A DNA stretch of 32,000 nt from Desulfotalea psychrophila LSv54 (GTDB lineage: Bacteria; Desulfobacterota; Desulfobulbia; Desulfobulbales; Desulfocapsaceae), in assembly GCF_000025945.1 (NCBI RefSeq), contig NC_006138.1, forward strand, positions 1,470,001-1,502,000, given 5' to 3'. The position numbers were made by a program, and so were the translations under genes. Shown here in pieces: positions 4,013 through 25,072 of this stretch. Positions within the stretch are counted from its first letter, which is position 1. Each line of letters begins with the position of its first letter. A model generated the notes under the pieces. It had not been told where the DNA came from and did not search any database. It saw nothing but the letters and a program-made list of their open reading frames with translations.

Positions 4013-5010
4013 GGGGCAAATACCTTTATAAAACCTGCGGTGAGCAGAAGATTAATAAGGGAGAGAGGTATTAAAATTTTCCAGGAAAGATTTAATAACC
4101 CGTAGATAGTGGTTCGTGGAAAGGTCCAGCGAATCCAGATAAAGGTGAAGATCAGGATGTATATTTTTATCAAAAACCACCAGACACCGGGGAAGAGACC
4201 AAAGGGGCAGTCCCATCCTCCGAGAAAGAGCAGGGTGGTCAGACAGGCACCGATAACGATATTGGCGTACTCTCCCATGAAAAAGAGGCCAAAGCCCATA
4301 CTGGAATATTCAGTATGAAAACCTGCCACCAGTTCACTCTCCGCCTCACCCAGATCAAAGGGGGCCCTGTTGGTCTCAGCCAGGGAACAGATAAAAAATA
4401 TGAGAAAGGAGATGGGCATAAAGATATTGAAGAGGCCGGGTTTAAGTGGCCAGAGGTTCCAATGCCAGAAGCCACCACTTTGGGAGTGGACAATTTCTAT
4501 GAAATCCACCGAGCCACTGACCAGTACCACGGTGATTGCGGTAATCAGCATGGGGATCTCATAGGCAATGGTCTGGGATACTGCCCGAATGGCTGCCATC
4601 ATTGAATATTTGTTTCTGGAACTCCAGCCAGCCAGAAGTATTGCCAGTCCGGCAAAGGAGGCAAAGGCCAAGATAACCAGAAGCCCGATATCCATATTAT
4701 GGGCTACGATATTTTCGCTAAAGGGGATGGTAACAAAACTCATCAGGGCTGGGAACATGGCAAGTACCGGTGCCACCATGAACAGTATTTTATCTACTCC
4801 TCCTGGAATGACCAGCTGTTTGGTCATGAGCTTGATGCCGTCGACCGGGGGTTGCAACAGGCCCCACGGCCCGTTTTCCACGGGCCCCAGTCGCCTTTGG
4901 ATAAAAGCTGCTCCCCTTCGTTCTGCCCAAACAAGATATGCTGCATTTACAGCCACAAAGGCCAGGGCAATCAGAGCTGCTGCAAGAACATTTATTAATG
5001 TAAGACTCAT
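4009..5010 (-). CDS. nuoH: NADH-quinone oxidoreductase subunit H
   Basis: 333 aa polytopic protein. N-terminal WAERRGAAFIQRRLGPVENGPWGLLQPPVDGIKL is the NuoH/ND1 signature. Confidence 0.92.
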   Translation of the reverse strand: MSLTLINVLAAALIALAFVAVNAAYLVWAERRGAAFIQRRLGPVENGPWGLLQPPVDGIKLMTKQLVIPGGVDKILFMVAPVLAMFPALMSFVTIPFSENIVAHNMDIGLLVILAFASFAGLAILLAGWSSRNKYSMMAAIRAVSQTIAYEIPMLITAITVVLVSGSVDFIEIVHSQSGGFWHWNLWPLKPGLFNIFMPISFLIFFICSLAETNRAPFDLGEAESELVAGFHTEYSSMGFGLFFMGEYANIVIGACLTTLLFLGGWDCPFGLFPGVWWFLIKIYILIFTFIWIRWTFPRTTIYGLLNLSWKILIPLSLINLLLTAGFIKVFAP

Positions 5011-5024
5011 AAAAAACTCCCTCT

Positions 5025-6143
5025 CTATCGATCTATCTCAGGGATAACAAGGTCTAAACTACCCATAAGGGCCAAGGCATCTGCTATGAGCATTCCTTGG
5101 CAGACTTCGTCAAAAAGGTGCATATTGGAAAAGGTCGGTGAACGAAGCTTGAGGCGATAGGCATTTTTCCCTCCGTCACTGACCAGGCGAATACCGAAGC
5201 TGCCACGTGCCGCTTCCACCGTAGAGTAGTAATCTCCCTCTGGAAGTTTGATAATCTTAGGTTTCTTTTCAGGTATAATGGGGCCACCTGGTAATTTATC
5301 CATGGCCTGCTCTATGATGCGTAGAGATTGTTCCATCTCATCCATCCGCACCATGTATCTGGCGTAGGAGTCCCCCTCATGGTAGACTGGGATATCAAAG
5401 TCAAATTCATTGTATACTGAGTATGGTTCGTTTTTACGGACATCAAAGTTGATACCTGATCCACGGGCGACGGGACCGGTGGCCCCATATTTACGGCAAA
5501 TTTCCGGGGAGATATGGCCAATATCCTTAAGACGTTTCATCAGGATGATGTTATTGGTGACAAGGTCCCGATAGGTTTTTAGGGACTTACGCATTCGAAT
5601 GATAAACTTGCGGGTGCCTACCAAAAACTCATCATCAATATCATTATAGAGTCCGCCAAAACGATAATAGCAGTAGGTCAGGCGGGAACCGGTAATGGAT
5701 TCGAGCAGATCAAGGATCTGTTCGCGGTCGTCAAAGGCGTACATCAGCGGAGAAAAGCCACCGAGATCCATGATAAAGGCACCAAACCAGACCAGATGTG
5801 ATGAAAGTCTGTTCAGCTCTACGGTGATGGCGCGGATATATTCGGCTCGTTCAGGCACTTCGATTGAGCCAGCCTTCTCTACGGCCAGAACATATCCATG
5901 ACAGTAGGCCATGGCTGAGAGATAGTCGAGTCGGCTCAGATTTGGTAGGTACTGGTTATAGGTGCGGTTTTCACCCATTTTTTCGTGCATACGATGAATA
6001 TAGCCAATGACGGTTTCGGCACTGTATATATATTCACCATCCATGGTCAGCTTTACCCGAAGCACACCGTGGGTCGCTGGATGCTGAGGACCGAGGTTGA
6101 GAGTAAATGTCTCATCCGGGTTAAGTATAATATGTTCGCTCAT
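5025..6143 (-). CDS. nuoD: NADH-quinone oxidoreductase subunit D (49-kDa subunit)
   Basis: 372 aa. LGPQHPATHGVLRV near the N-terminus and the C-terminal DLVIPEIDR are NuoD signatures. No NiFe-hydrogenase CxxC pairs. The stop lies 14 bp from the nuoH start. Confidence 0.93.
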   Translation of the reverse strand: MSEHIILNPDETFTLNLGPQHPATHGVLRVKLTMDGEYIYSAETVIGYIHRMHEKMGENRTYNQYLPNLSRLDYLSAMAYCHGYVLAVEKAGSIEVPERAEYIRAITVELNRLSSHLVWFGAFIMDLGGFSPLMYAFDDREQILDLLESITGSRLTYCYYRFGGLYNDIDDEFLVGTRKFIIRMRKSLKTYRDLVTNNIILMKRLKDIGHISPEICRKYGATGPVARGSGINFDVRKNEPYSVYNEFDFDIPVYHEGDSYARYMVRMDEMEQSLRIIEQAMDKLPGGPIIPEKKPKIIKLPEGDYYSTVEAARGSFGIRLVSDGGKNAYRLKLRSPTFSNMHLFDEVCQGMLIADALALMGSLDLVIPEIDR

Positions 6144-6613
6144 GCTTTAAAGTCCTTGAGCAGAGGGTGAAAATCGGCATCCTCTGGCAGGAGCAGGGGA
6201 ATCAGATGGGGGTGGCCGGTGAAGTCTATGCCGAAGAAATCTCGTGTTTCGCGTTCATGCCAGTTGGCACCGTTGTATACCGAAGTAATAGATGGAATAA
6301 CAGGTGTGTCCCTGGAGGTACGAGTGCGGATGACGATGCGAAAAGAGTGCTCATCGTAGCGATTAAAGTCATATACCGATTCGATCTCTTCTTCCTTCGG
6401 CCAATCAACACCGGTGATGGATTCGAGGAAATAGCCGAGTTCATCGAGTACCGTAACTGTTTCAATGAGAAGATCCGGGCTGACCACGATGTTGAGGTAG
6501 TAGCCACAGATGCTGTAGTCGCTCTCTTCAACAAATGGCAGGGGCGTTGCTGTACTGTGGTCGGCAAAAAGGGATGCGAGTTTTTCTTGTGTCTGTTCTT
6601 TTATAGATGACAT
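6140..6613 (-). CDS. nuoC: NADH-quinone oxidoreductase subunit C (30-kDa subunit)
   Basis: 157 aa with the NWHERETRDFFGIDFTGHP motif. 4-nt overlap with nuoD. Confidence 0.9.
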   Translation of the reverse strand: MSSIKEQTQEKLASLFADHSTATPLPFVEESDYSICGYYLNIVVSPDLLIETVTVLDELGYFLESITGVDWPKEEEIESVYDFNRYDEHSFRIVIRTRTSRDTPVIPSITSVYNGANWHERETRDFFGIDFTGHPHLIPLLLPEDADFHPLLKDFKA

Positions 6614-9919: not shown

Positions 9920-10675
9920 TTAGTAGAAAACCTGGAACAGCTTAAGACCGTGTGCAGGGGCCGTAGGGCCTGCTGCATTACGGTCTTTTTCTTTGAGTGC
10001 CTGTTCAAACCATTCAACACTCTCTTTACCCCGCCCCACCTCCAGGATTGATCCCACTATATTTCGTACCATATTTCTTAGAAAACCGTCGCCGATAAAG
10101 ACAAAATGCCAGGAGTCCTCTTCGAACTGTTCGTAACGTGCCTCTAGGATGGTGCGGACAGCACCCTTGCCACCGGTACGTGTTTTATCTCTGGATCCTG
10201 TATTTTCAAAAGAGGAGAAATCATGGGTACCGATAATTATCTGCAGACATTTTTGCATTGCCTCCTGATCAATTGGTTTTTCCTGATGGAGCATATACAA
10301 TCTCTTCTGGGGCGGGATTACTCCGCCGGTGAAAAGCCTGTAGTGATACTCCTTACCGGTGGCGGCAAAGCGGGCATGGAAATCGTCGGCCATTTCTCTT
10401 ACCTGAAGAATACGGATTGCACCTGGGAGCATTCTATTGAGTGCCCGTTGGAAATCATTACAGGTCAGTCTGGTATCGGTATGAAAATGTGCCGTCATTC
10501 CATCGGCATGGACCCCGGCATCTGTTCTGCCTGCCCCATGGAGGGAGATCTCTTTTACCGAGAGTCTTTTGAGGCGTGCTTCTATTTCACCCTGAATTGT
10601 GTTGGCGTGGTGCTGTTTTTGCCAGCCGGAATAATCGGTGCCGTCAAAGGCTATAAGTAGACAAATATTACGCAT
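9920..10675 (-). CDS. truA: tRNA pseudouridine(38-40) synthase
   Basis: 251 aa. MRNICLLIAFDGTDYSGWQKQ and HGAGRTDAGVHA (catalytic Asp) are TruA signatures. Confidence 0.93.
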   Translation of the reverse strand: MRNICLLIAFDGTDYSGWQKQHHANTIQGEIEARLKRLSVKEISLHGAGRTDAGVHADGMTAHFHTDTRLTCNDFQRALNRMLPGAIRILQVREMADDFHARFAATGKEYHYRLFTGGVIPPQKRLYMLHQEKPIDQEAMQKCLQIIIGTHDFSSFENTGSRDKTRTGGKGAVRTILEARYEQFEEDSWHFVFIGDGFLRNMVRNIVGSILEVGRGKESVEWFEQALKEKDRNAAGPTAPAHGLKLFQVFY

Positions 10676-11800: not shown

Positions 11801-11920
11801 AATCAGACCTTATAATAAAGGAGTAAAAAGAGTGACACTCGCCCATGACCTATGTTTGTGAGGCTGGGGGCTCCAGTTGCGGACCTCGGCGGAGCGTTTA
11901 CAGGGCAATATCGCAGACAT

Positions 11921-11956
11921 AAAAAAAGGGGAATAACAGTATAACTGTTATTCCCC
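11921..11956 (-). terminator. Rho-independent terminator downstream of rpsI
   Basis: Perfect 13-bp stem GGGGAATAACAGT / ACTGTTATTCCCC with an ATA loop (11928-11956). On the minus strand it is followed by T7 (A-run 11921-11927). Confidence 0.8.
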
Positions 11957-12028
11957 TTTAATACCTCTAACCTATCGTTTATAAAAAAACATAACGATAA
12001 ATAGACGTAAAGTACAAGCAGATGTCTC

Positions 12029-16983: not shown

Positions 16984-17108
16984 AGAGGCCTTTTTTGCGA
17001 GATTCCGCCCCATGGCGTGGCTGGGGCGGTAGTAGCTGATAGAGAATAAGAATGCGGGCACAATCTTGCAGTCTATTTCTAGAAATGAAATGTAGAGAGG
17101 AGTTTGTT

Positions 17109-17792
17109 TTGAGCAAGGGCCCAGGTGTAGAGAAGATGTTTGATGCTATTGCCGGACGTTATGACCTGATGAATAAGGTGATGACCATGGGCCAGGATCA
17201 GCGTTGGCGTAGGTTTGTTGTGGCCAAAGCAGGAGACCCGGGTGCAGGGCAGGTTCTGGATCTTGCCACGGGCACCGGTGATATTGCCGCATTGATGCAC
17301 AGGTCCTATCCAAGGGCCCAGGTAACAGGCGGAGATTTTTCCCGGAATATGCTCGAGGAGGCGAAGAAGAGGTTTGCGGGCCAGGGCATTGATTGGCAGG
17401 TCTGTGATGCCAATAAGCTTCCCTTTGCAGACAATACCTTTGAGGCCGTAACCTTTGGTTATTTGCTGAGAAATGTTGATGATGCCTCTTCGGTTCTGGC
17501 CGAAGTGTACCGCGTGTTGAAACCGGGTGGGCGTTGTGTCTGTCTTGATACCACACCCCCTGCTAAGAATATTATTTACCCCTTTGTTCAGTTTTACTTC
17601 CGTTACGGAATCCCTCTATTGGGCCGGATGATAGCCGCCGATGAGGCAGCTTATGCCTATTTGAGTGGCTCGACGATGGAATTTCATTCTGCTGAGGTGC
17701 TTGCCGATCTTTTTCGTGGGGCCGGTTTTGTTGATGTCCATTATAAGAAATTTATGCTGGGAACGATCGGAATCCATTGGGGAGTGAAATAA
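17109..17792 (+). CDS. ubiE: Demethylmenaquinone / ubiquinone C-methyltransferase (UbiE/MenG family)
   Basis: MFDAIAGRYDLMNKVMTMGQDQRWRR and the SAM motif VLDLATGTGD. I place the start at TTG 17109, with SD GAGAGGAG 6 nt upstream. The ORF track starts at 17052, and ATG 17085 is an alternative. Confidence 0.88.
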   Translation: MSKGPGVEKMFDAIAGRYDLMNKVMTMGQDQRWRRFVVAKAGDPGAGQVLDLATGTGDIAALMHRSYPRAQVTGGDFSRNMLEEAKKRFAGQGIDWQVCDANKLPFADNTFEAVTFGYLLRNVDDASSVLAEVYRVLKPGGRCVCLDTTPPAKNIIYPFVQFYFRYGIPLLGRMIAADEAAYAYLSGSTMEFHSAEVLADLFRGAGFVDVHYKKFMLGTIGIHWGVK

Positions 17793-19726
17793 TGTTTGGT
17801 GAAGGAAGGCTAGATGCAAAGTTGTTGCCTGTGCGTGAGATCCAGAAGACTCTGTTTGAGATGTTTATCGCCAGTGTTGCCCATCATTCAGATAATATTG
17901 CCTATATATATAAGGTTAACGGTGAAGAGCTGCGGGTAACCTATTCAAAGCTCTTTGAGGATGTGCTTCTGTTGAGCAGGGCCTTTAAGAGGCGGGGCTT
18001 GGGCAGGGGCGATAAGGTGATGCTCCTCTCGGACAACCGTTATTCCTGGATCGTTACCGATCTTGCCCTTCTCTCCCTCGGGGCGGTAAATGTCCCCCGC
18101 GGCTCGGATACCCCCACTCAGGAACTTGAGTTCATTGTTGAACATTCTGAGAGTGTTCATCTGATTGTGGAGAGCAGTAAGTTGCTTGATCTGCATGCTG
18201 ATTATATCAAGAGATGCCGACAGATAAAAGACATCTTCATTATGGTGGCAGGAGAGGTGCATACCCTCTTTGGTCGTACCTATTCCTATCAGGATCTGCT
18301 TGCCAATCGTCAGTATAGCGAAAAAGATGTGAATAATTTTCTGGAAGAGGGTTATTCCTCTACCGAAGATGATTTTGTTACCATAATCTATACTTCAGGT
18401 ACTACAGGGGTGCCCAAGGGGGTCCAGCTCAGCAACAAGAACATTATGCATAATGTTGATTGTTTGCCGGGGATTATTCGTCTTACCGAGGAAGATCTGT
18501 GGCTCTCCATTCTTCCCAGCTGGCATATTTTTGAACGTACTGCCGAGTATGTTGCCCTTGCCGCCGGGACAACCCTCGTCTACTCCACGGTGCGCACTCT
18601 GGTCCAGGATCTGGAGAGATATAAACCGACCCTGTTGGCCACCGTGCCTCGGGTATGGGAATCTCTCTACTCCAAGGTGGACTCAGGGGTACGTAAAAAA
18701 GGAGCAATGGCCTATAGAATCTTTACTTCTCTTATCTGGTGTTCTTCCACTTATCGACGTAACAGAAGGGAATTTCTTGATCGGCTGCCAGTTTTTGCAA
18801 AGCCTAATTCCCTTGTTCGGTTTGGCCAAAAAGGTGTGGCTTTGGTGAAGATGTTGTTCCTTTATCTGCCCTATCTTTTTGCCGAGAAAAAGCTCAATGT
18901 GGTGCGCCAGCGTTTTGGTGGCAGGCTACGCTTGGCGATCAGTGGTGGAGGTAGTCTTGCCGATTACCTTGAAGAGTGGGTTGATGCCGTTGGTATTCGT
19001 ATTGTTAATGCCTATGGGATGACCGAGTGTTCGCCTGCTATTGCCGGACGTGGACTCGACTGTCGGGTCTATGGAACGGTTGGCGCAGGTGTTACCAATA
19101 CCCGGATTCGCTTGGTTGATGATGATGGCCTTGAAGTCTCTCAAGGAAAAGAGGGGTTGATTGAGGTTGTGGGCGATCAGGTTATGGGCGGTTATTATAA
19201 AAACGATGTGGGGAATATCGAGTCTTTTACCGATGATGGTTTTTTTAGAACCGGTGATCTCGGACGAAGGACGATCAGTGGTGATCTGGTCCTAACCGGT
19301 CGGGCCAAGGATATTATTGTTCTCTCCAGTGGGGAGAATATTGACCCCAGCCGGATTGAGAGTGCTATCTCTGTTTTTCCCTTTGTTCAGGATGCTATTT
19401 TGGTTGGGCAGGACAAGAAAGGACTCGGTGCCCTCCTTGTTGCCGACAGAGAAGAGTTGCTAAAGTATGCCGATAGCAGATTTTCTCATCTGCGTAAAGC
19501 CAGTCAAGAGCTTCTCAAGGATAATAAGGTGCTTGAACTGATTCGCAAGGAGATGAACGATAAGCTCCGGCCTAAGCAGGGGTTTAAGTCCTATGAAAAG
19601 TTGCATAAAATTACTTTCTTAGAAAAGGAATTTAAGCTCGGTGAAGAGCTGACCAATACCCTGAAAAAGAAACGTCATGTTATAGAAAAGAAATATCACA
19701 AGGTTATCAACGATTTGCTCCATTAA
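17792..19726 (+). CDS. Long-chain acyl-CoA synthetase (AMP-forming, ANL superfamily)
   Basis: IIYTSGTTGVPKGVQLSNKN AMP-binding motif, YGMTEC, GDLGRR...GRAKDII. ATG 17792 overlaps the ubiE TAA (TAATG); the ORF-track start at 17777 is a TTG five codons upstream. Confidence 0.88.
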   Translation: MFGEGRLDAKLLPVREIQKTLFEMFIASVAHHSDNIAYIYKVNGEELRVTYSKLFEDVLLLSRAFKRRGLGRGDKVMLLSDNRYSWIVTDLALLSLGAVNVPRGSDTPTQELEFIVEHSESVHLIVESSKLLDLHADYIKRCRQIKDIFIMVAGEVHTLFGRTYSYQDLLANRQYSEKDVNNFLEEGYSSTEDDFVTIIYTSGTTGVPKGVQLSNKNIMHNVDCLPGIIRLTEEDLWLSILPSWHIFERTAEYVALAAGTTLVYSTVRTLVQDLERYKPTLLATVPRVWESLYSKVDSGVRKKGAMAYRIFTSLIWCSSTYRRNRREFLDRLPVFAKPNSLVRFGQKGVALVKMLFLYLPYLFAEKKLNVVRQRFGGRLRLAISGGGSLADYLEEWVDAVGIRIVNAYGMTECSPAIAGRGLDCRVYGTVGAGVTNTRIRLVDDDGLEVSQGKEGLIEVVGDQVMGGYYKNDVGNIESFTDDGFFRTGDLGRRTISGDLVLTGRAKDIIVLSSGENIDPSRIESAISVFPFVQDAILVGQDKKGLGALLVADREELLKYADSRFSHLRKASQELLKDNKVLELIRKEMNDKLRPKQGFKSYEKLHKITFLEKEFKLGEELTNTLKKKRHVIEKKYHKVINDLLH

Positions 19727-19765
19727 TGGAGATGTTACTCATTCATTTTCTTTTACTCAAACCTA

Positions 19766-19805
19766 CGCACCCCCTCTTGTTCTCCCCCTCGCCAAGGTGG
19801 AGAGA
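19766..19805. repeat. REP-like GC-rich hairpin element, left copy
   Basis: CGCACCCCCTCTTGTTCTCCCCCTCGCCAAGGTGGAGAG. It shares the CGCACC end and the CTCGCCAAGG core with the reverse complement of the 19895-19931 copy. Confidence 0.6.
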
Positions 19806-19894
19806 CTTTCAGCAGAAATATGGCAACAGACGAAGCCTCTGCTCTTGCCCAATCTCCTCTTTTTTGCCCTTTCTCGCATCTTTTCTGCTTTTAG

Positions 19895-19931
19895 CCCCTC
19901 TCCTTGGCGAGGAGAGGTTGGGTGAGGTGCG
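19895..19931. repeat. REP-like GC-rich hairpin element, right copy (inverted)
   Basis: CCCCTCTCCTTGGCGAGGAGAGGTTGGGTGAGGTGCG contains an internal hairpin CCTCTCC-TTGGCGA-GGAGAGG. Its reverse complement aligns with the left copy. Confidence 0.6.
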
Positions 19932-20195
19932 TTCGTGCCGGAGGCAATTTCCTCCATTCCGTCAACTCTTATCAAGGGAGCAGGTCGCTCGGAACAATAA
20001 CTGTTTGTCGATTTTCAAAAGGTCTCACCTTTTCAATGCCAAAACCCATAAGAGATGGGGGCATTTAAGCGTTACAGTGTACTACATATCTGCAAAGCGA
20101 TAGCTGCCGATAAGAAAATAATGGTAGAGGTAAAGGCTAAAGGAAAAAAGAGGCCCTACCCGTTGTAGGGAAACCCTAAGCTTGCGCTCATGGGA

Positions 20196-20605
20196 GAATA
20201 AACACATGCAAAAAGCCTAAAAACCAGAACATTGGCGCAATATACATTTGTATAAAGCCTCAAACATTCAGTAGTCGACCAATATACAAATGTATAAAGC
20301 CCGAAACACCCAGGAGTGGAGCAATATACAGATGTATAAAGCCTGAAACATCCAGGAGTGGAGCAATATACAAATGTATAAAGCCTCAAACATCCAGGAG
20401 TGGACCAATATGTAAATGTATAAAGCCTCAAACACCGAGGAAACACAATATGCAAATGTATAAAGCCTGAAACATCCAGAGTGGACAATATACAAATGTA
20501 TAAAGGGTGAAACTTGAGTCTCGACCAATGTACCCGTGCATAGGGTGAAAACTGCCGAGGTTGACCAATGTACGAATGTCGAGAGGCTTGAAAGATGGGG
20601 AATGG
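20196..20605. repeat. Array of ten head-to-tail 40-42-bp direct repeats, each built around a TATACA-NN-TGTATA palindrome
   Basis: The CAATAT(A/G) register starts at 20196 (degenerate), 20238, 20280, 20322, 20364, 20406, 20446, 20486, 20526 and 20566. The spacing is 42 bp five times, then 40 bp four times. Consensus: CAATATACAAATGTATAAAGCCTSAAACATCCAGGAGTGGAG. The outer copies are degenerate. ORFs 20156..20488 and 20268..20528 are translation artefacts of this repeat. Confidence 0.95.
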
Positions 20606-20763
20606 CTTATCTAGAGGATCTTATCTTAGGTGAGATGGAGGACTCTCTTCTTATTTATGCAACAAGGCCGCATTGGTGTTAAAGAATTGATTATCTTTTC
20701 AAATTCACACATATTTATTTTCCTGATGGATAATGCTCATTAAAGCTAACTCCTCATTAAGAG

Positions 20764-20809
20764 GCAAAAAATTGTTGGCCAAAATCAGCGAGGCACGAGC
20801 ATGGCCAAC
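20764..20809 (-). terminator. Candidate (bidirectional) terminator downstream of the 141-aa gene
   Basis: GTTGGCCA (20774-20781) pairs with TGGCCAAC (20802-20809) across a 20-nt loop. The minus strand continues AATTTTTTG and the plus strand continues TGTTTTTGTCCTTTT. The long loop lowers confidence. Confidence 0.4.
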
Positions 20810-20834
20810 TGTTTTTGTCCTTTTGAATGACTTG

Positions 20835-21260
20835 TTATAAACCGTTTTCACGTGTGCTCATTAAAAAAGCCTTAAACCTAATAATGTTAGGAGTTTCATT
20901 GCGTTTCAGCATCGAATACTCTGTGAGAGCATCAGTTATAGCCATAAAAGAATCCAGTTTTAAGTTTAAATAGGCAAAACGATCTGCTTTATTATCCATG
21001 TGTTTAATAGAATTTTTCGGGCGCTTATCTTCTTTTTTGATAGCTGTTCTATTAATTTGTTCATCTATAAATTTAGCTGCTTGATCTAGTATCATAGTAG
21101 TAAAATCTTGCCCGCCGTTTATTCTTAGCCATTTACCATATATTTCTTGAGCAGCTCCAGCTAAATGCAGCGCCGAAAAATATTTTTGACCATCTAGATA
21201 TGATTCAATAGCACTCTCTAACATTTCATCTGCAATAGTTAATTTATCAAACTTTTCCAT
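20835..21260 (-). CDS. Hypothetical all-helical 141-aa protein with a possible HEPN-like (DUF4145-like) motif; partner of the Shedu-like gene
   Basis: AT-rich ORF 58 bp downstream of the 417-aa gene on the same strand. The N-terminal helix pair MLESAIESYLDGQKYFSALHLAGAAQEIYGKWL and R80-P-K-N83-S-I-K-H87 (codons 21023-21000) resemble the HEPN Rx4-6H signature. This is not a confident family assignment. Confidence 0.55.
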   Translation of the reverse strand: MEKFDKLTIADEMLESAIESYLDGQKYFSALHLAGAAQEIYGKWLRINGGQDFTTMILDQAAKFIDEQINRTAIKKEDKRPKNSIKHMDNKADRFAYLNLKLDSFMAITDALTEYSMLKRNETPNIIRFKAFLMSTRENGL

Positions 21261-21318
21261 GGGATTCCGATAGGTTTATAACGGCAGAAATCAGGCGCCG
21301 ACCAATGGATTTACCGCG

Positions 21319-22572
21319 TCAGCGCCCCATACCCCTTCCCGTTGCCTGAATTAATTTGTTGTGTGTTTTAGACCACTGACTTATTGTAAACTTAAGTCGC
21401 TCTAATAAATCATCATATGTAATGATGTCGATTACATTTTTGTATTTTCTTTTAATAACTTCAAAATCTTGCACCTGCTCATGTGTCATACCCTTTTTAC
21501 GACCCATAATTATAATGCCGCTTGGATTTGTTATTTTTATTTTGAAGTTCTCTGGCAATTCGTCTTTGTAGTGCTCTGTTAATTTTTCCTCTCCTTTTTT
21601 ACCCCATTTATTTAAATAGAAAATATACTTCTCAATTTGCATTACCGTACCAGAAAGTTCTCTTAGCGGTATGTAGTTGTCTCTATAAGTTCTTGTAGTA
21701 ACTATACACTTGTCGAAGGGCTTCTTTATTTCGATAATGTCTGTATTTCCGCTGGAATCTATTAGTAAATAGTCGATTTTTCGATCCGCTTTGTTATAGG
21801 TATCCCTGACAGGAGCTTCCTTGAATGCATGTATATATTTGGGATATAGCAGTAGTATAATTTGCAGCAATTCCTCCTGCCATTGAGCTTCAGTATAAGA
21901 AACTTCATCCTCAAGCATAGAATTAAGCTTTTCAGAAATGCTTGTAAATTTAATTAGTTCGAGATTTGAAAAATCATACTGAAGATTAGCTCCCTTTCTA
22001 CCATTTTTTTTATTTAAATATTGTTGATAACGTTCCTCATAGTCGTCATTAATTTCTATGTATGAAGATAAAACGCCACTGATCCTTGCTGAAACATATT
22101 TATTTAGTTCATTTGTATTGGGAAATGTTTTCAATAAACCATAATAAACCGGCATTGAGATCGCGTCTTCTTCGTCACCACCTATATAAATGGGACGATT
22201 TACCATGTTATCTATTTTGGGAAATATTGATATGTTACGTTCCGCGACAAAAAACCTACGTTCTAGTTTTATATCTTCATGCACATATAGATCGTGTTTT
22301 AAAGATAAAATATCCTTCGGGAAGCGATAGTATTCCCCATCCTTAACAGCAACTTCAAATTCAACTGGAGCCTCTTCGTCTTCTTTATTGAAAGCAGAAC
22401 TAAGATTCTTTTGGCTAAACTTGAAGACTTTACTAATTGTAACTCTGCCTGATTTATCCAATTCGTGATAGACCCAATTATGCGTGGGATAATCGCTTGA
22501 GTAGCAGAGTAAGATTTTGTTATCTAATTCCTTAAATTTAATCATATATTTGGGTTGCTCGCATTGAGACAT
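21319..22572 (-). CDS. Shedu-like (DUF4263) PD-(D/E)xK nuclease, putative anti-phage defence protein
   Basis: 417 aa, AT-rich. The C-terminal third reads EAQWQEELLQIILLLYP...RKIDYLLIDSSGNTDIIEIKKP...GTVMQIEKY...PSGIIIMGRKKGMTHEQ...VIDIITYDDLLERL. This gives a D...D...E-x-K nuclease core, a Q-x-x-x-Y helix and a TYDDL tail, as in DUF4263/SduA. The N-terminal ~250 aa has no recognisable domain. The start could be M10 (22545). Confidence 0.65.
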   Translation of the reverse strand: MSQCEQPKYMIKFKELDNKILLCYSSDYPTHNWVYHELDKSGRVTISKVFKFSQKNLSSAFNKEDEEAPVEFEVAVKDGEYYRFPKDILSLKHDLYVHEDIKLERRFFVAERNISIFPKIDNMVNRPIYIGGDEEDAISMPVYYGLLKTFPNTNELNKYVSARISGVLSSYIEINDDYEERYQQYLNKKNGRKGANLQYDFSNLELIKFTSISEKLNSMLEDEVSYTEAQWQEELLQIILLLYPKYIHAFKEAPVRDTYNKADRKIDYLLIDSSGNTDIIEIKKPFDKCIVTTRTYRDNYIPLRELSGTVMQIEKYIFYLNKWGKKGEEKLTEHYKDELPENFKIKITNPSGIIIMGRKKGMTHEQVQDFEVIKRKYKNVIDIITYDDLLERLKFTISQWSKTHNKLIQATGRGMGR

Positions 22573-22903
22573 AATGACCCGAGGTGAGCCACGAGATTGT
22601 TTTGTGATTTGGGCACCGTGTACAGGTCCTGGATTGAAAAATGGTCGCAGTCGCTTCCCTTATTGCTGGGGACTTAGCTCCGGGGCGACAAATTTTTCTT
22701 TAAAACTGCTGTTTATCTCCTCTGGTAACATAATGGAGGAGCAGATGGAAGACAAGCTTATTTCACTCCTGAGCCTAGCTTTAACTCTATGGAAAGTGGC
22801 AGAGTCTCTTATGGGGAGACCTCTACTCATTCGTAACGGAGAAAAGATGTTACTCTTCGAATATTAGATATTTATCCTGCTATAGCACTAAGGCAAACTC
22901 TTG

Positions 22904-23812
22904 CTACGATCGCCCCTTTTTATTAAGGGGGTAGCTGCTCTCTCGGTAAAAAATAAACATTCCAGAGGCAATGATGATGCCAGCGCCCAGCAGGGTTTGG
23001 GCACCAGGGAATTGCCCAAAAAGTAGCCAGCCAAGAATGGTGGCACTCACTATTTCGAGATATTGAAAGGGGGCAAGAACATTGGCATCTGCTTTGGTGA
23101 AGGCGATGGTTAAAAGTTGATGGGAGATAAGGGAGCTGGCGCCAACACCAAGAAAAAGGAGGGCAACCTCAGTCGTTGGCCAGGAGAGTTCAAAGAGCGG
23201 CAGTGAAAATGCATCTCCTAGTAAGGTTATGGGTAAAAGAAAGAGAGTTGCACCCATGCTTGCGTAGAACTGCATGGCGTTGACACTCTCTCCTCTTTTA
23301 CTCTGTTTTCTCGTTACAATAAGATATAGGGCAAAAAAGGTTGCGGTGAGAAAGGGGAGGATGGCGGTTGCACCAAAATTTGTGAAGCTGGGGCCGATGA
23401 TGAAGAGGGCGCCGGCAAAGCCAATCAAACAGGCTGTTATTCGTGCAATACCAATTTTTTCTTTAAGAAGTACGGCGGAAAAGAGGGTTAAGAGGAGGGG
23501 TTCTGCAAAGAAGATAGCAATGGCATCGGCCAGAGGCATTTGGGTAATTGCGGCGATAAAGCAAAGAGATGCCACTGCATTGAGAATACCTCGCAAAAAA
23601 TGGGTGGCCAGCAGAGGGAGCTTAGGGATTTTAAGTTCCCGGTAGGCAAAGGGAAAAAGCAGTGCACCCTGTAAAGAAAAACGGACTAAGGCAATTTCAC
23701 CGGGGGAAACATAGGCTGTCAGAACCTTACTTATGGCATCAATAACCGGAAGCAGCAAGGCTGCTGCTATCATAATAAGTAATCCTTTTTGCTGTGACTT
23801 TCTTTCCTCCAT
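22904..23812 (-). CDS. EamA/DMT-family transporter
   Basis: 302 aa with about 10 TM segments in two EamA-like halves. A strong SD (AAGGAGGAGG) precedes the ATG. Confidence 0.85.
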   Translation of the reverse strand: MEERKSQQKGLLIMIAAALLLPVIDAISKVLTAYVSPGEIALVRFSLQGALLFPFAYRELKIPKLPLLATHFLRGILNAVASLCFIAAITQMPLADAIAIFFAEPLLLTLFSAVLLKEKIGIARITACLIGFAGALFIIGPSFTNFGATAILPFLTATFFALYLIVTRKQSKRGESVNAMQFYASMGATLFLLPITLLGDAFSLPLFELSWPTTEVALLFLGVGASSLISHQLLTIAFTKADANVLAPFQYLEIVSATILGWLLFGQFPGAQTLLGAGIIIASGMFIFYRESSYPLNKKGRS

Positions 23813-23904
23813 GCCTCCTCCTTAAAAAGTAAATAGGAGGAGGGTACTGTAGGAGTAACGGATTCGCAACAGGAGAAAGTTGGTTAGTATGCTTTCGCCT
23901 CACT

Positions 23905-24672
23905 TTAGTAAATCTTGGCTTGGTCCTGTTGGGCCTGGCTATTTTTAGTTGCCGCTATGATAATTTCGTTAATGCTCTTGGCATAGGAAACATTTTTAGG
24001 AGCAGTCACCCTATCAAAGGATGTTCTATGCTCTGCTTGAGGATCATAGAAAAAGATATAATCGCTACCCTGGTTTTCCAGAAGGTCTGTCAGGACAATT
24101 TTAAGGTTACTGTTTTCTTTGTTGAGGGGGTCAACTCGGACAAAGGCTGTTCCCCATACCTGTCGTATCTGTTCAATCTCTTCGTCGGAAATATTCTCTG
24201 CTGCTGCTGTAGTGGTGATAAGGGCCGCGGAGCTGGATCTTTCTTTGCCTACTTTTATCTCGTCTCCAACCCTTATTTCGCCGCCCTCTTTGACAATGGC
24301 AAAAATACCTTCGCGGGGCATAACGCAATCACCTGCCTGATGGAAAATGGCGCATGGTTTGTGACAGATCTTGCCCAACTGGGAGATGATAAGTTTGCTC
24401 TTGCCAATTGTGAGATGGCTTCCCACGGGCAGGGCCGTAAGGTTTATTCCCGTTGTGGTGAGATTCTCTGCAAAATTACCTGCCACCACATCAAGTCCCT
24501 TTTCTCTCATGGAATCGATACTTTCCTGGGCGAGGAGGCTTACCTGGCGATGCCATCTGCCACCGTGGGCATCGTCTTGTAGGCCAAAGGCCTCAATAAG
24601 TTGAATGGAATGCACATTTTTTTTTCGAACACCCTTGCGATTACTTATGGAAATTGCTGAAATGATGGACAT
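23905..24672 (-). CDS. MOSC-domain protein with ~110-aa C-terminal extension of unknown function
   Basis: The N-terminal ~145 aa (GLQDDAHGGRWHRQVSLLAQES...NLTTTGINL...GKICHKPCAI...REGIFA.V..GG.I..GD) is a MOSC beta-barrel. ATG 24672 has better SD spacing (AAAGGTG) than the GTG at 24681 used by the ORF track. Confidence 0.75.
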   Translation of the reverse strand: MSIISAISISNRKGVRKKNVHSIQLIEAFGLQDDAHGGRWHRQVSLLAQESIDSMREKGLDVVAGNFAENLTTTGINLTALPVGSHLTIGKSKLIISQLGKICHKPCAIFHQAGDCVMPREGIFAIVKEGGEIRVGDEIKVGKERSSSAALITTTAAAENISDEEIEQIRQVWGTAFVRVDPLNKENSNLKIVLTDLLENQGSDYIFFYDPQAEHRTSFDRVTAPKNVSYAKSINEIIIAATKNSQAQQDQAKIY

Positions 24673-25072
24673 GATAGGCACCTTTTGTGAGAAGAAGAGC
24701 TTACACCTCTTCTGAGGGTTTTTGAGAATTCGGCATTAGGAAATAAGGTATCTATTTTAGCTGTTTTTGCAAGAGGTGATGGGACTGAAGAGGGGATTTG
24801 TAAAAAAAATATGATGGTTCCAGGTCATGGAGGATAAAGGTTTTCGTAAAGATTGGGGGGGCAGGAGGTAGGAGTGGGTAAAATAGGCAATTATTATAAT
24901 CTCTTCTTTTGTATTTGGAAATAAAATTGTTGATTTTTATTTTTTCTCTGTCGAATTTGTTGCTAGAGACAATAACTCCCTAGTTATAGTTATATAAAAA
25001 GCCTATAATGAAGCATTAAGTTGAAACTGATTTTTGCTGATCAATAATAACAATTACAAGTGGAGACCTGTT

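Follow-up and report, generated by a model that had tools for sequence, protein, structure and literature searches.

Two Probable Integron Cassettes, One Encoding a Predicted Shedu Nuclease, in the Chromosome of Desulfotalea psychrophila LSv54

How did two AT-rich genes come to lie downstream of a long-chain acyl-CoA synthetase gene in the chromosome of Desulfotalea psychrophila LSv54, and by what means were they mobilized? The question is raised by a stretch of 32,000 nucleotides (contig NC_006138.1, positions 1,470,001 to 1,502,000 of the forward strand), referred to here as the window, with all coordinates counted from its first letter. An initial annotation made from the sequence alone described the DNA between the synthetase gene and a gene for an EamA-family transporter (eamA) as an accessory islet of about 3.1 kb, bracketed by an imperfect direct repeat that was read as the scar of an insertion. 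The analysis presented here indicates that a smaller interval, 20750–22574 on the minus strand, most probably consists of two integron cassettes that originated in marine Gammaproteobacteria, and that the window has no integron integrase. The first cassette (21282–22574) carries the gene for a predicted Shedu nuclease, SduA, and the second (20750–21281) carries the gene for a 141-amino acid (aa) protein followed by a recombination site of the attC type.

The interval is foreign in composition, with a G+C content of 0.347 compared with 0.467 for the whole window. The windowed G+C profile that had been proposed as a check displays an AT-rich dip to 0.32–0.36 over approximately 20600–22600 between flanks of 0.46–0.53, and the G+C content is 0.425 in 19727–20749, 0.444 in the spacer between eamA and the first cassette (22575–22903) and a native-like 0.473 in eamA itself. 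The G+C counts given earlier for four 60-nucleotide lines (19/60, 15/60, 26/60, and 35/60) were all exact on recount, and the two AT-rich genes were recovered as minus-strand open reading frames (ORFs) at 20835–21260 and 21319–22572. For each of the two genes, the nearest relatives occur in marine Gammaproteobacteria or on metagenome contigs and not in the Desulfobacterota.

The site downstream of the 141-aa gene, attC2 (20744–20841, minus strand), has an R'' box (TTATAAC) that overlaps the stop codon of the gene and an R' box that reads GTTAGCT. Eight homologues of the site (77–85% identical) were identified in replicons of Pseudoalteromonas, Aliivibrio, Vibrio, and Catenovulum, and each of the eight is intergenic and located directly after an unrelated ORF. 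An analysis of covariation identified 26 base pairs, with 93.5% of the cells paired and nine compensated pairs, a result reached by none of 500 shuffles and compared with 23–49% pairing in slid controls. The TAAC:GTTA pairing is essentially invariant and is accompanied by a 3x3 loop and a 5-bp L box with three compensated pairs. A covariance model (R1) built from the other eight homologues, leaving the window out, recovered attC2 with 99.4 bits on the minus strand (E = 2e-25) and 26.6 bits on the plus strand, and nothing else in the rest of the window scored under E 0.9. On the strength of these comparisons, 20744–20841 is a bona fide integron attC site.

Several of the homologues (compared loci are given by L numbers) have cassette arrays as their genomic context. 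The homologue on a plasmid of Aliivibrio salmonicida (L021) is located in a dfrA1-containing array with four further R1 matches, three further R1 matches lie among IS110 elements in L020, and additional sites were detected by R1 in the arrays of L024 and L025. In Pseudoalteromonas sp. HL-AS1 (L022), the homologue follows the first cassette beside an annotated, divergently oriented integron integrase, and the sequence following the GTT of the attI site is identical to the sequence following the GTT of the attC site. The stretch 4404–6500 of this locus contains intI, a LexA-box-like sequence (CTGT-N8-ACAG) between intI and the cassette, a 107-aa cassette present twice in tandem and then an IS110-family transposase, and is a complete small integron.

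Two other hairpins in the window were considered as attC candidates and rejected. An AT-rich hairpin at 11907–11980 gave the only other E-value below 1 with the attC models (E = 0.34–0.93), is much shorter than an attC site and was judged to be a chance match or a terminator hairpin. A strong GC-rich hairpin with a plus-strand T run at 9929–10005, between convergent ORFs, is the top AAC..GTT-closed hairpin of the window. It is probably a terminator and was counted as a false positive in the search for such hairpins, a heuristic that is noisy in GC-rich coding DNA.

The second cassette (20750–21281) opens with the TT of GCC G|TTATAAACC and closes with the G in GAG|TTAGC, and its ORF at 20835–21260 was confidently modelled as an all-helical protein (AlphaFold2, predicted local distance difference test score 86.5). 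A total of 62 homologues of the protein were identified, mostly in metagenome sequences, and the named ones belong to marine Gammaproteobacteria (among them Rheinheimera, Marinomonas, Photobacterium, and Vibrio). A unit of approximately 470 bp that contains the gene recurs with other neighbours in the metagenome contig L007 (96.7% identical) and in Marinomonas and Rheinheimera (75–80%). In L007 the gene adjoins a PIN/Phd pair, and in Rheinheimera and Marinomonas it is found within runs of small co-oriented genes. The 5' edge of the DNA homology falls at window position 21283 in L007, 21281 in L009, and 21285 in L011. From GTTATAAACC / GTTATAAACCTATCGGAATCCCATGG onward L007 has the same sequence as the window, and upstream of it the two are unrelated, with the junction at exactly G|TTATAA. 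Read from these alignments, the edge is the crossover point (G|TT) of integron recombination, which establishes the cassette boundary of the 141-aa gene. Furthermore, the Rheinheimera copy has its own attC site that starts at the same TATAACAAGT and is detected by R1 (E = 0.02).

Two of the compared loci display features of their own. In L007 (8395–8536) the homology breaks 31 nucleotides before the position of the window's stop codon and a different reading frame follows (…RLEDYRWSSYPSY…), which suggests that a rearrangement removed the attC site of that copy; the hairpin upstream in L007 was not recognized by the models. In Marinomonas lutimaris (L011, 7175–10241), small genes in a common orientation, including AbiJ/Abi_C, FRG, DUF4238, and the 141-aa homologue, are separated by four copies of a repeat of approximately 190 nucleotides that contains a CAACTAAAGCC...GGGCTTTAGTTG hairpin in every copy, and the stretch looks like a chromosomal cassette array among P2-like tail genes.

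The 141-aa protein had no match in Pfam, PADLOC, or PHROGs and a single NCBIfam match far under the cut-off, and a sequence profile search of the PDB and Foldseek searches of the PDB and BFVD returned only non-significant matches. Within the family, LAGAAQEIYGK and the residues K82, N83, K86, and H87 (KNxxKH) are invariant. HEPN structures were among the weak fold matches (E = 1.6–4.2, template modelling score 0.30–0.46), and the R80 of the HEPN Rx4-6H motif is replaced in several of 25 homologues. The possibility that the protein is an obligate partner of Shedu was rejected: it is found alone among other genes in L007, L009, and L011, and the SduA relatives differ in their neighbours.

The gene of the first cassette encodes a 417-aa ORF (21319–22572, minus strand, start codon at 22572), or 408 aa from the RefSeq start (21319–22545), and the shorter form carries the RefSeq label “Shedu immune nuclease family protein.” The 417-aa ORF matches the PADLOC model PDLC00388 over positions 1–400 of 402, that is, over its full length (E = 2e-162), and contains the Pfam domain SduA_C (PF14082, DUF4263) at residues 226–390 (E = 3.8e-42). 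Residues 1–389 align with residues 4–407 of 411 of the Shedu effector protein structure 8PS4 (E = 6e-94), and the structure of the isolated N-terminal domain (8PS6) is also matched (E = 6e-33). The D...E-x-K stretch is kept in the alignment with 8PS4 (DIIEIKKP opposite DIIEVKKP) and the PD-(D/E)xK motif is present, with IDYLLIDSSGNTDIIEIKKP paired with IDIALVDANGNLDIIEVKKP of 8PS4. Judged by these alignments, the ORF encodes an SduA-type Shedu nuclease over its full length, of the kind represented by SduA of E. coli.

The SduA protein of E. coli is a tetramer in which an N-terminal clamp recognizes free DNA ends and a PD/ExK domain nicks DNA (10.1101/2023.08.10.552762). Compared with that protein (PDB 8PS4/8PS5; 10.1101/2023.08.10.552762), the D. 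psychrophila protein is aligned across the N-terminal domain that senses DNA ends as well as across the PD/ExK nuclease domain, whereas it is a homologue by sequence only and the last few codons of its gene enter the region of a second attC candidate, attC1. SduA is predicted to form a tetramer, to nick DNA and to block linear phage or plasmid DNA, and both the expression of the cassettes and the activity of SduA in this host are presumed.

DNA homology to the SduA region extends over 22574–21356 in L012 (86.6% identical), 22545–21355 in L015, and 22503–21347 in L018. At the 5' edge of this homology both L012 and L015 read AAC G|TTATG. In L012 (the same locus as L013), attC-like hairpins are present on both sides of SduA and the hairpin of the preceding gene ends exactly at the homology boundary. 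The relatives and the window share ACAYAYAACAA at the end of the ORF, followed by a divergent hairpin that ends in GTT; the L018 relative terminates in GCGTTAGCC, and the attC site 3' of the SduA homologue in L015 is picked up by R1 (E = 0.02–0.03). In the window, the cassette (21282–22574) starts with TTATGTC and has the G in GCC G|TT as its last base, and its junction with the second cassette contains a putative degenerate site, attC1 (21276–21364, minus strand). This 72-nucleotide GC-rich junction between the SduA and 141-aa genes forms an AAC..GTT hairpin of -11.4 kcal/mol, which ranks third of seven such places in the window. The R' box of attC1 reads GTTATAA and its R'' box either ACACAAC or AGGCAAC, and the R'' box is homologous to the R'' boxes of SduA cassettes elsewhere.

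The closest relative of SduA on a long contig (84% amino acid identity) is encoded in the metagenome contig L012 (577–6057), where the gene is located behind an AAA_15/AAA_21 ATPase gene with its own attC-like hairpin. Upstream of these genes are a 290-aa tyrosine recombinase, which scores 179 bits with the integron-integrase model TIGR02249 (cut-off 265), and an IS91-family transposase.

No integrase was identified in the window, and searches with the IntI protein of L022 and the L012 recombinase (tblastn) gave E-values of at least 1.8. The neighbouring genes in the window are housekeeping genes, and the combination of intI and attI that defines a complete integron was not found there. The initial annotation was right that no integrase is present but not that the mobilization is unexplained. 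Cassettes are moved through their attC sites by an integrase acting in trans, which accounts for the lack of an integrase, a transposase, and a tRNA target. Two routes can be envisaged. A circle of two cassettes, or two cassettes in succession, may have been captured by an integrase in trans at a non-canonical genomic site; alternatively, the interval may be the surviving fragment of a former cassette array. By either route, the upstream junction and attC1 would have decayed afterwards. Genomic G|WT sites can serve integrases as points of cassette insertion (10.1101/2022.09.11.507474).

Several observations weigh against two cassettes. The 5' edge of the SduA cassette lacks a G|TT, as the window reads GGTCA|TTATGTC with A as the base in place of G, and this upstream junction appears to be mutated or non-canonical. 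No attC-like hairpin, attI site, or integrase remnant was recognized in the spacer at 22575–22903. The thermodynamic fold z-scores of both attC candidates are weak (-2.0 and -1.2, the latter for attC1), and attC1 reaches 4.9 bits on the minus strand with the covariance models, a broadened model (R2) included, which are biased toward the attC2 family. The site is putative and only weakly attC-like, leaving attC2 as the only certain attC site here. Finally, the cassettes leave unexplained a tandem array and a 170-nucleotide hairpin downstream of them as well as the spacer upstream, all of which could be relics of a different vehicle.

Integron elements without an integrase are grouped as attC clusters that have no integron-integrase (CALINs), defined by two or more attC sites inside 4 kb and by the lack of intI (PMC4889954), and solitary attC sites with no integron-integrase (SALINs). 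Both types are common. CALINs with two cassettes are the commonest size (1362 of 2961; 10.1101/2022.09.11.507474), and among the defence systems carried by integron cassettes Shedu is reported to rank second in frequency (10.1101/2024.07.02.601686). The best reading of the LSv54 element is that of a CALIN of two cassettes, one of whose sites has decayed, or, should attC1 be rejected, formally that of a SALIN with a cassette-derived gene in front of it; the two labels are kept because attC1 is weak, the base upstream is an A, and the spacer carries neither attC nor attI. The likeness to these elements (PMC4889954; 10.1101/2022.09.11.507474) is found in ORFs that are compact, share one orientation, have 5' leaders of 21 and 29 nucleotides and are each followed by an AAC...GTT-closed hairpin, in the lack of an integrase nearby, and in the recurrence of the LSv54 cassettes in other arrays with different neighbours. 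The differences are that only one of two attC sites is demonstrably intact, that the upstream junction is A|TT and not G|TT, and that the host is a sulfate reducer of the Desulfobacterota, while donors among the Vibrionales or Alteromonadales are indicated by the type of attC and by the two genes. The Shedu cassettes of sedentary chromosomal integrons of Vibrio and its relatives (10.1101/2024.07.02.601686) are likewise single-gene cassettes, but the LSv54 copy is located outside an integron platform and in another phylum, and would have to be expressed without a Pc promoter.

The surroundings of the element were compared with the syntenic loci of four Desulfotalea-like relatives (L002, L003, L005, and L028). 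The synthetase of the window, like the 417-aa ORF, is 100% identical to a protein of D. psychrophila LSv54, and a genome-collection scan with the synthetase gave only a paralogue-level match of 30% identity. The closest synthetase orthologues are approximately 72% identical and the closest relatives approximately 70% identical in coding DNA; because identity is only ~70–72%, the nucleotide-level breakpoints come without a true empty site. The order AspRS-UbiE-synthetase upstream is kept in all four relatives, the downstream order Usp-tRNA_edit-...-RecC is retained and MOSC is also present in three of the four. Nucleotide homology to the relatives ends at 19726/19727, at the end of the synthetase gene (17777–19726, plus strand; Pfam AMP-binding, E = 2.7e-75), which forms the conserved flank and the left edge of the variable slot, and restarts at 24293 (MOSC) or 25071 (Usp). 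The slot downstream of the synthetase gene is a variable rearrangement hotspot because homology breaks at 19726/19727 and resumes only at these positions. A nickel superoxide dismutase gene (Sod_Ni) is located between the synthetase and MOSC/Usp in three relatives (L002, L005, and L028), and this slot lacks Shedu, the 141-aa gene, and eamA in all four. The eamA gene (22904–23812, minus strand; Pfam EamA, E = 7.5e-27) is therefore not conserved there. In LSv54, the EamA transporter takes the place of the dismutase (22904–24681), and no Sod_Ni was identified within the window.

These comparisons redraw the islet. The ORF ends given in the initial annotation for the synthetase gene (19726) and eamA (22904) were both correct, and a foreign block absent from the syntenic loci of the relatives is indeed present; the right-hand limit was misplaced, as eamA, which had been taken as a core boundary, is itself variable and missing from the slot in all four relatives.

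A first alternative is that the cassettes were delivered as cargo of a larger, decayed element (a transposon, plasmid segment, integrative element, or defence island), of which the array, as a protein-binding site of centromere or iteron type, the 170-nucleotide hairpin and the spacer would be relics. The tandem array reported earlier is real and consists of approximately 10 units with a period of 42 bp shortening to 40 bp (20193–20605; Tandem Repeats Finder delimits 20193–20505, and degenerate units continue to approximately 20605), the central units being most alike and the edges degenerate. Most units of 42 bp (CAATATACAAATGTATAAAGCC) carry the palindrome TATACAAATGTATA (TATACA-AA-TGTATA), with 12 matches compared with 0.24 expected. 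The large hairpin, described earlier as REP-like hairpins (repetitive extragenic palindromic), was also recovered, as a GC-rich inverted repeat of 170 nucleotides (19765–19935) with an RNA fold of -68.9 kcal/mol (z = -3.6, with none of 200 shuffles as good) and a DNA fold of -39.7 kcal/mol.

The array invites comparison with plasmid partition sites. Its approximately 10 head-to-tail units of 40–42 bp, or roughly four helical turns, resemble in form the sopC-type centromeres of the F plasmid and iterons. The likeness is one of form only, in that most units carry a short palindrome suited to a dimeric DNA-binding protein, whereas the LSv54 array is chromosomal and no related array was found in the collections searched. 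None of ParA/ParB, SopA/SopB, or Rep was identified among the ORFs of 17000–25000, which leaves the array outside the definition of a centromere or iteron array. Searches with the array unit returned a single match in metagenomes, which falls by chance in a microsatellite contig of eukaryote-like character, and none in viral contigs, in plasmids and phages (blastn), or in the loci that share these cassettes. Two further identities were rejected for the array: it is not a CRISPR (clustered regularly interspaced short palindromic repeats) array, as the whole 42-bp unit repeats at 76–100% identity with no unique spacers, and a relationship to the attC1 region was discarded when 29% of random windows aligned equally well. 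The hairpin has no second copy in the window, the compared loci, plasmids, or phages, and a search of Rfam found tRNA-Gly as the only family at gathering score in the window and a single match far below threshold in the islet. The spacer (329 nucleotides, 22575–22903) has no homologue in any compared locus.

The variable slot, with contents that differ among the four relatives, would suit such a vehicle, as would the sopC-type form of the array with its 14-bp palindrome, the location of SduA relatives elsewhere beside IS91 and a recombinase or beside IS110 elements, and the G+C content of 19727–20749, which lies under the window mean. On the other side, the window contains no gene for partition, replication, transposition, or integration, and the array, hairpin, and spacer had no homologue in the collections and cassette-bearing loci searched, and nothing links them to the cassettes. 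Delivery within a larger element is considered unlikely.

Two observations touch these sequences. An intrinsic-terminator-like hairpin at 20154–20170 (minus strand, CCCTACAACGGGTAGGG followed by a T run) is the only one found in 19600–23000 and is located just past the array on the cassette strand, which hints that minus-strand transcription of the SduA and 141-aa genes may continue across the array to this point. The spacer may contain a plus-strand ORF of 44 codons (22733–22867, MEEQMEDKLISLLSLALTLWKVAESLMGRPLLIRNGEKMLLFEY), divergent from SduA, and a longer 97-aa frame over the same interval had no Pfam match.

A second proposal is that the 141-aa protein represents a new minimal stand-alone defence or toxin cassette, maybe a divergent HEPN-like RNase, or that the array is a recruited functional non-coding element with a protein-titrating or regulatory role. 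Support for these two readings extends as far as the conservation of the family and the regularity of the array, and the proposal is regarded as rather doubtful.

The third alternative is the one put forward initially, namely, that a single 3.1-kb element entered by site-specific integration or transposition where the synthetase gene ends (3') and left the direct repeat as an att or target-duplication scar. Both repeat strings are present as quoted at 19724–19744 and 22834–22858. On closer comparison, the imperfect repeat shrinks to one exact 11-mer, AGATGTTACTC, with copies on the plus strand at 19730–19740 and 22845–22855 (the second within the spacer and in the 3' end of the 44-codon ORF) and a TTC after a gap of one nucleotide. 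The exact match, the location of both copies near gene ends, and the loss of homology to the relatives at the synthetase stop codon all speak for a scar, and when the two intergenic zones were narrowed post hoc to 100 and 150 nucleotides, only 9 of 1000 shuffles reached the alignment score and the probability of an exact shared 11-mer was ~0.003. Over the full zones, in contrast, the best gapped local alignment was equalled by 141 of 1000 dinucleotide shuffles, and the same 3.4 kb contains eight other exact 11-mer pairs outside the array. A repeat-finding run over the window did not return the direct repeat among its results, and no terminal inverted repeats were seen beside or inside the two copies when the sequence was read.

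The positions fit no better. The ends of the units with demonstrable mobility are at 20750, 21281/21282, and 22574, so that the two copies lie approximately 1 kb and 270 nucleotides beyond the outer cassette ends. The initial annotation had itself named breakpoints outside the two repeat copies as the result that would expose a chance match, and the right breakpoint lies beyond eamA (24293 or 25071), not at 22834–22858. The window contains no integrase or transposase, and the combination of flanking repeat, matching breakpoints, and recombinase that an att or duplication islet requires was not found. A scar is therefore highly improbable; the direct repeat looks like a chance match and was given no part in the mechanism.

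Native, vertically inherited DNA with a gene-specific low G+C content, for which the near-average G+C content of eamA and the flanking intergenic DNA might be cited, is virtually dismissed by the 96.7% identity of the 141-aa gene DNA to a metagenome contig with unrelated neighbours (75–80% in Rheinheimera and Marinomonas), the 77–85% identity of attC2 to sites of Pseudoalteromonas, Vibrio, and Aliivibrio, and the lack of both genes in the syntenic loci of the relatives.

The interpretation as two integron cassettes identifies a known kind of element and leaves current understanding unchanged, with an ordinary mechanism answering the question of mobilization. Its interest is modest and comes from the location in another phylum, from the 141-aa cassette family, and from the array without known counterpart. 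The conserved and uncharacterized 141-aa family, with its 62 homologues, is a candidate for defence screening. The case would place cassettes with attC sites of the Vibrionales/Alteromonadales type in a sulfate reducer that is psychrophilic and belongs to a different phylum, a location that agrees with the published view that cassettes, Shedu included, spread outside integron platforms.

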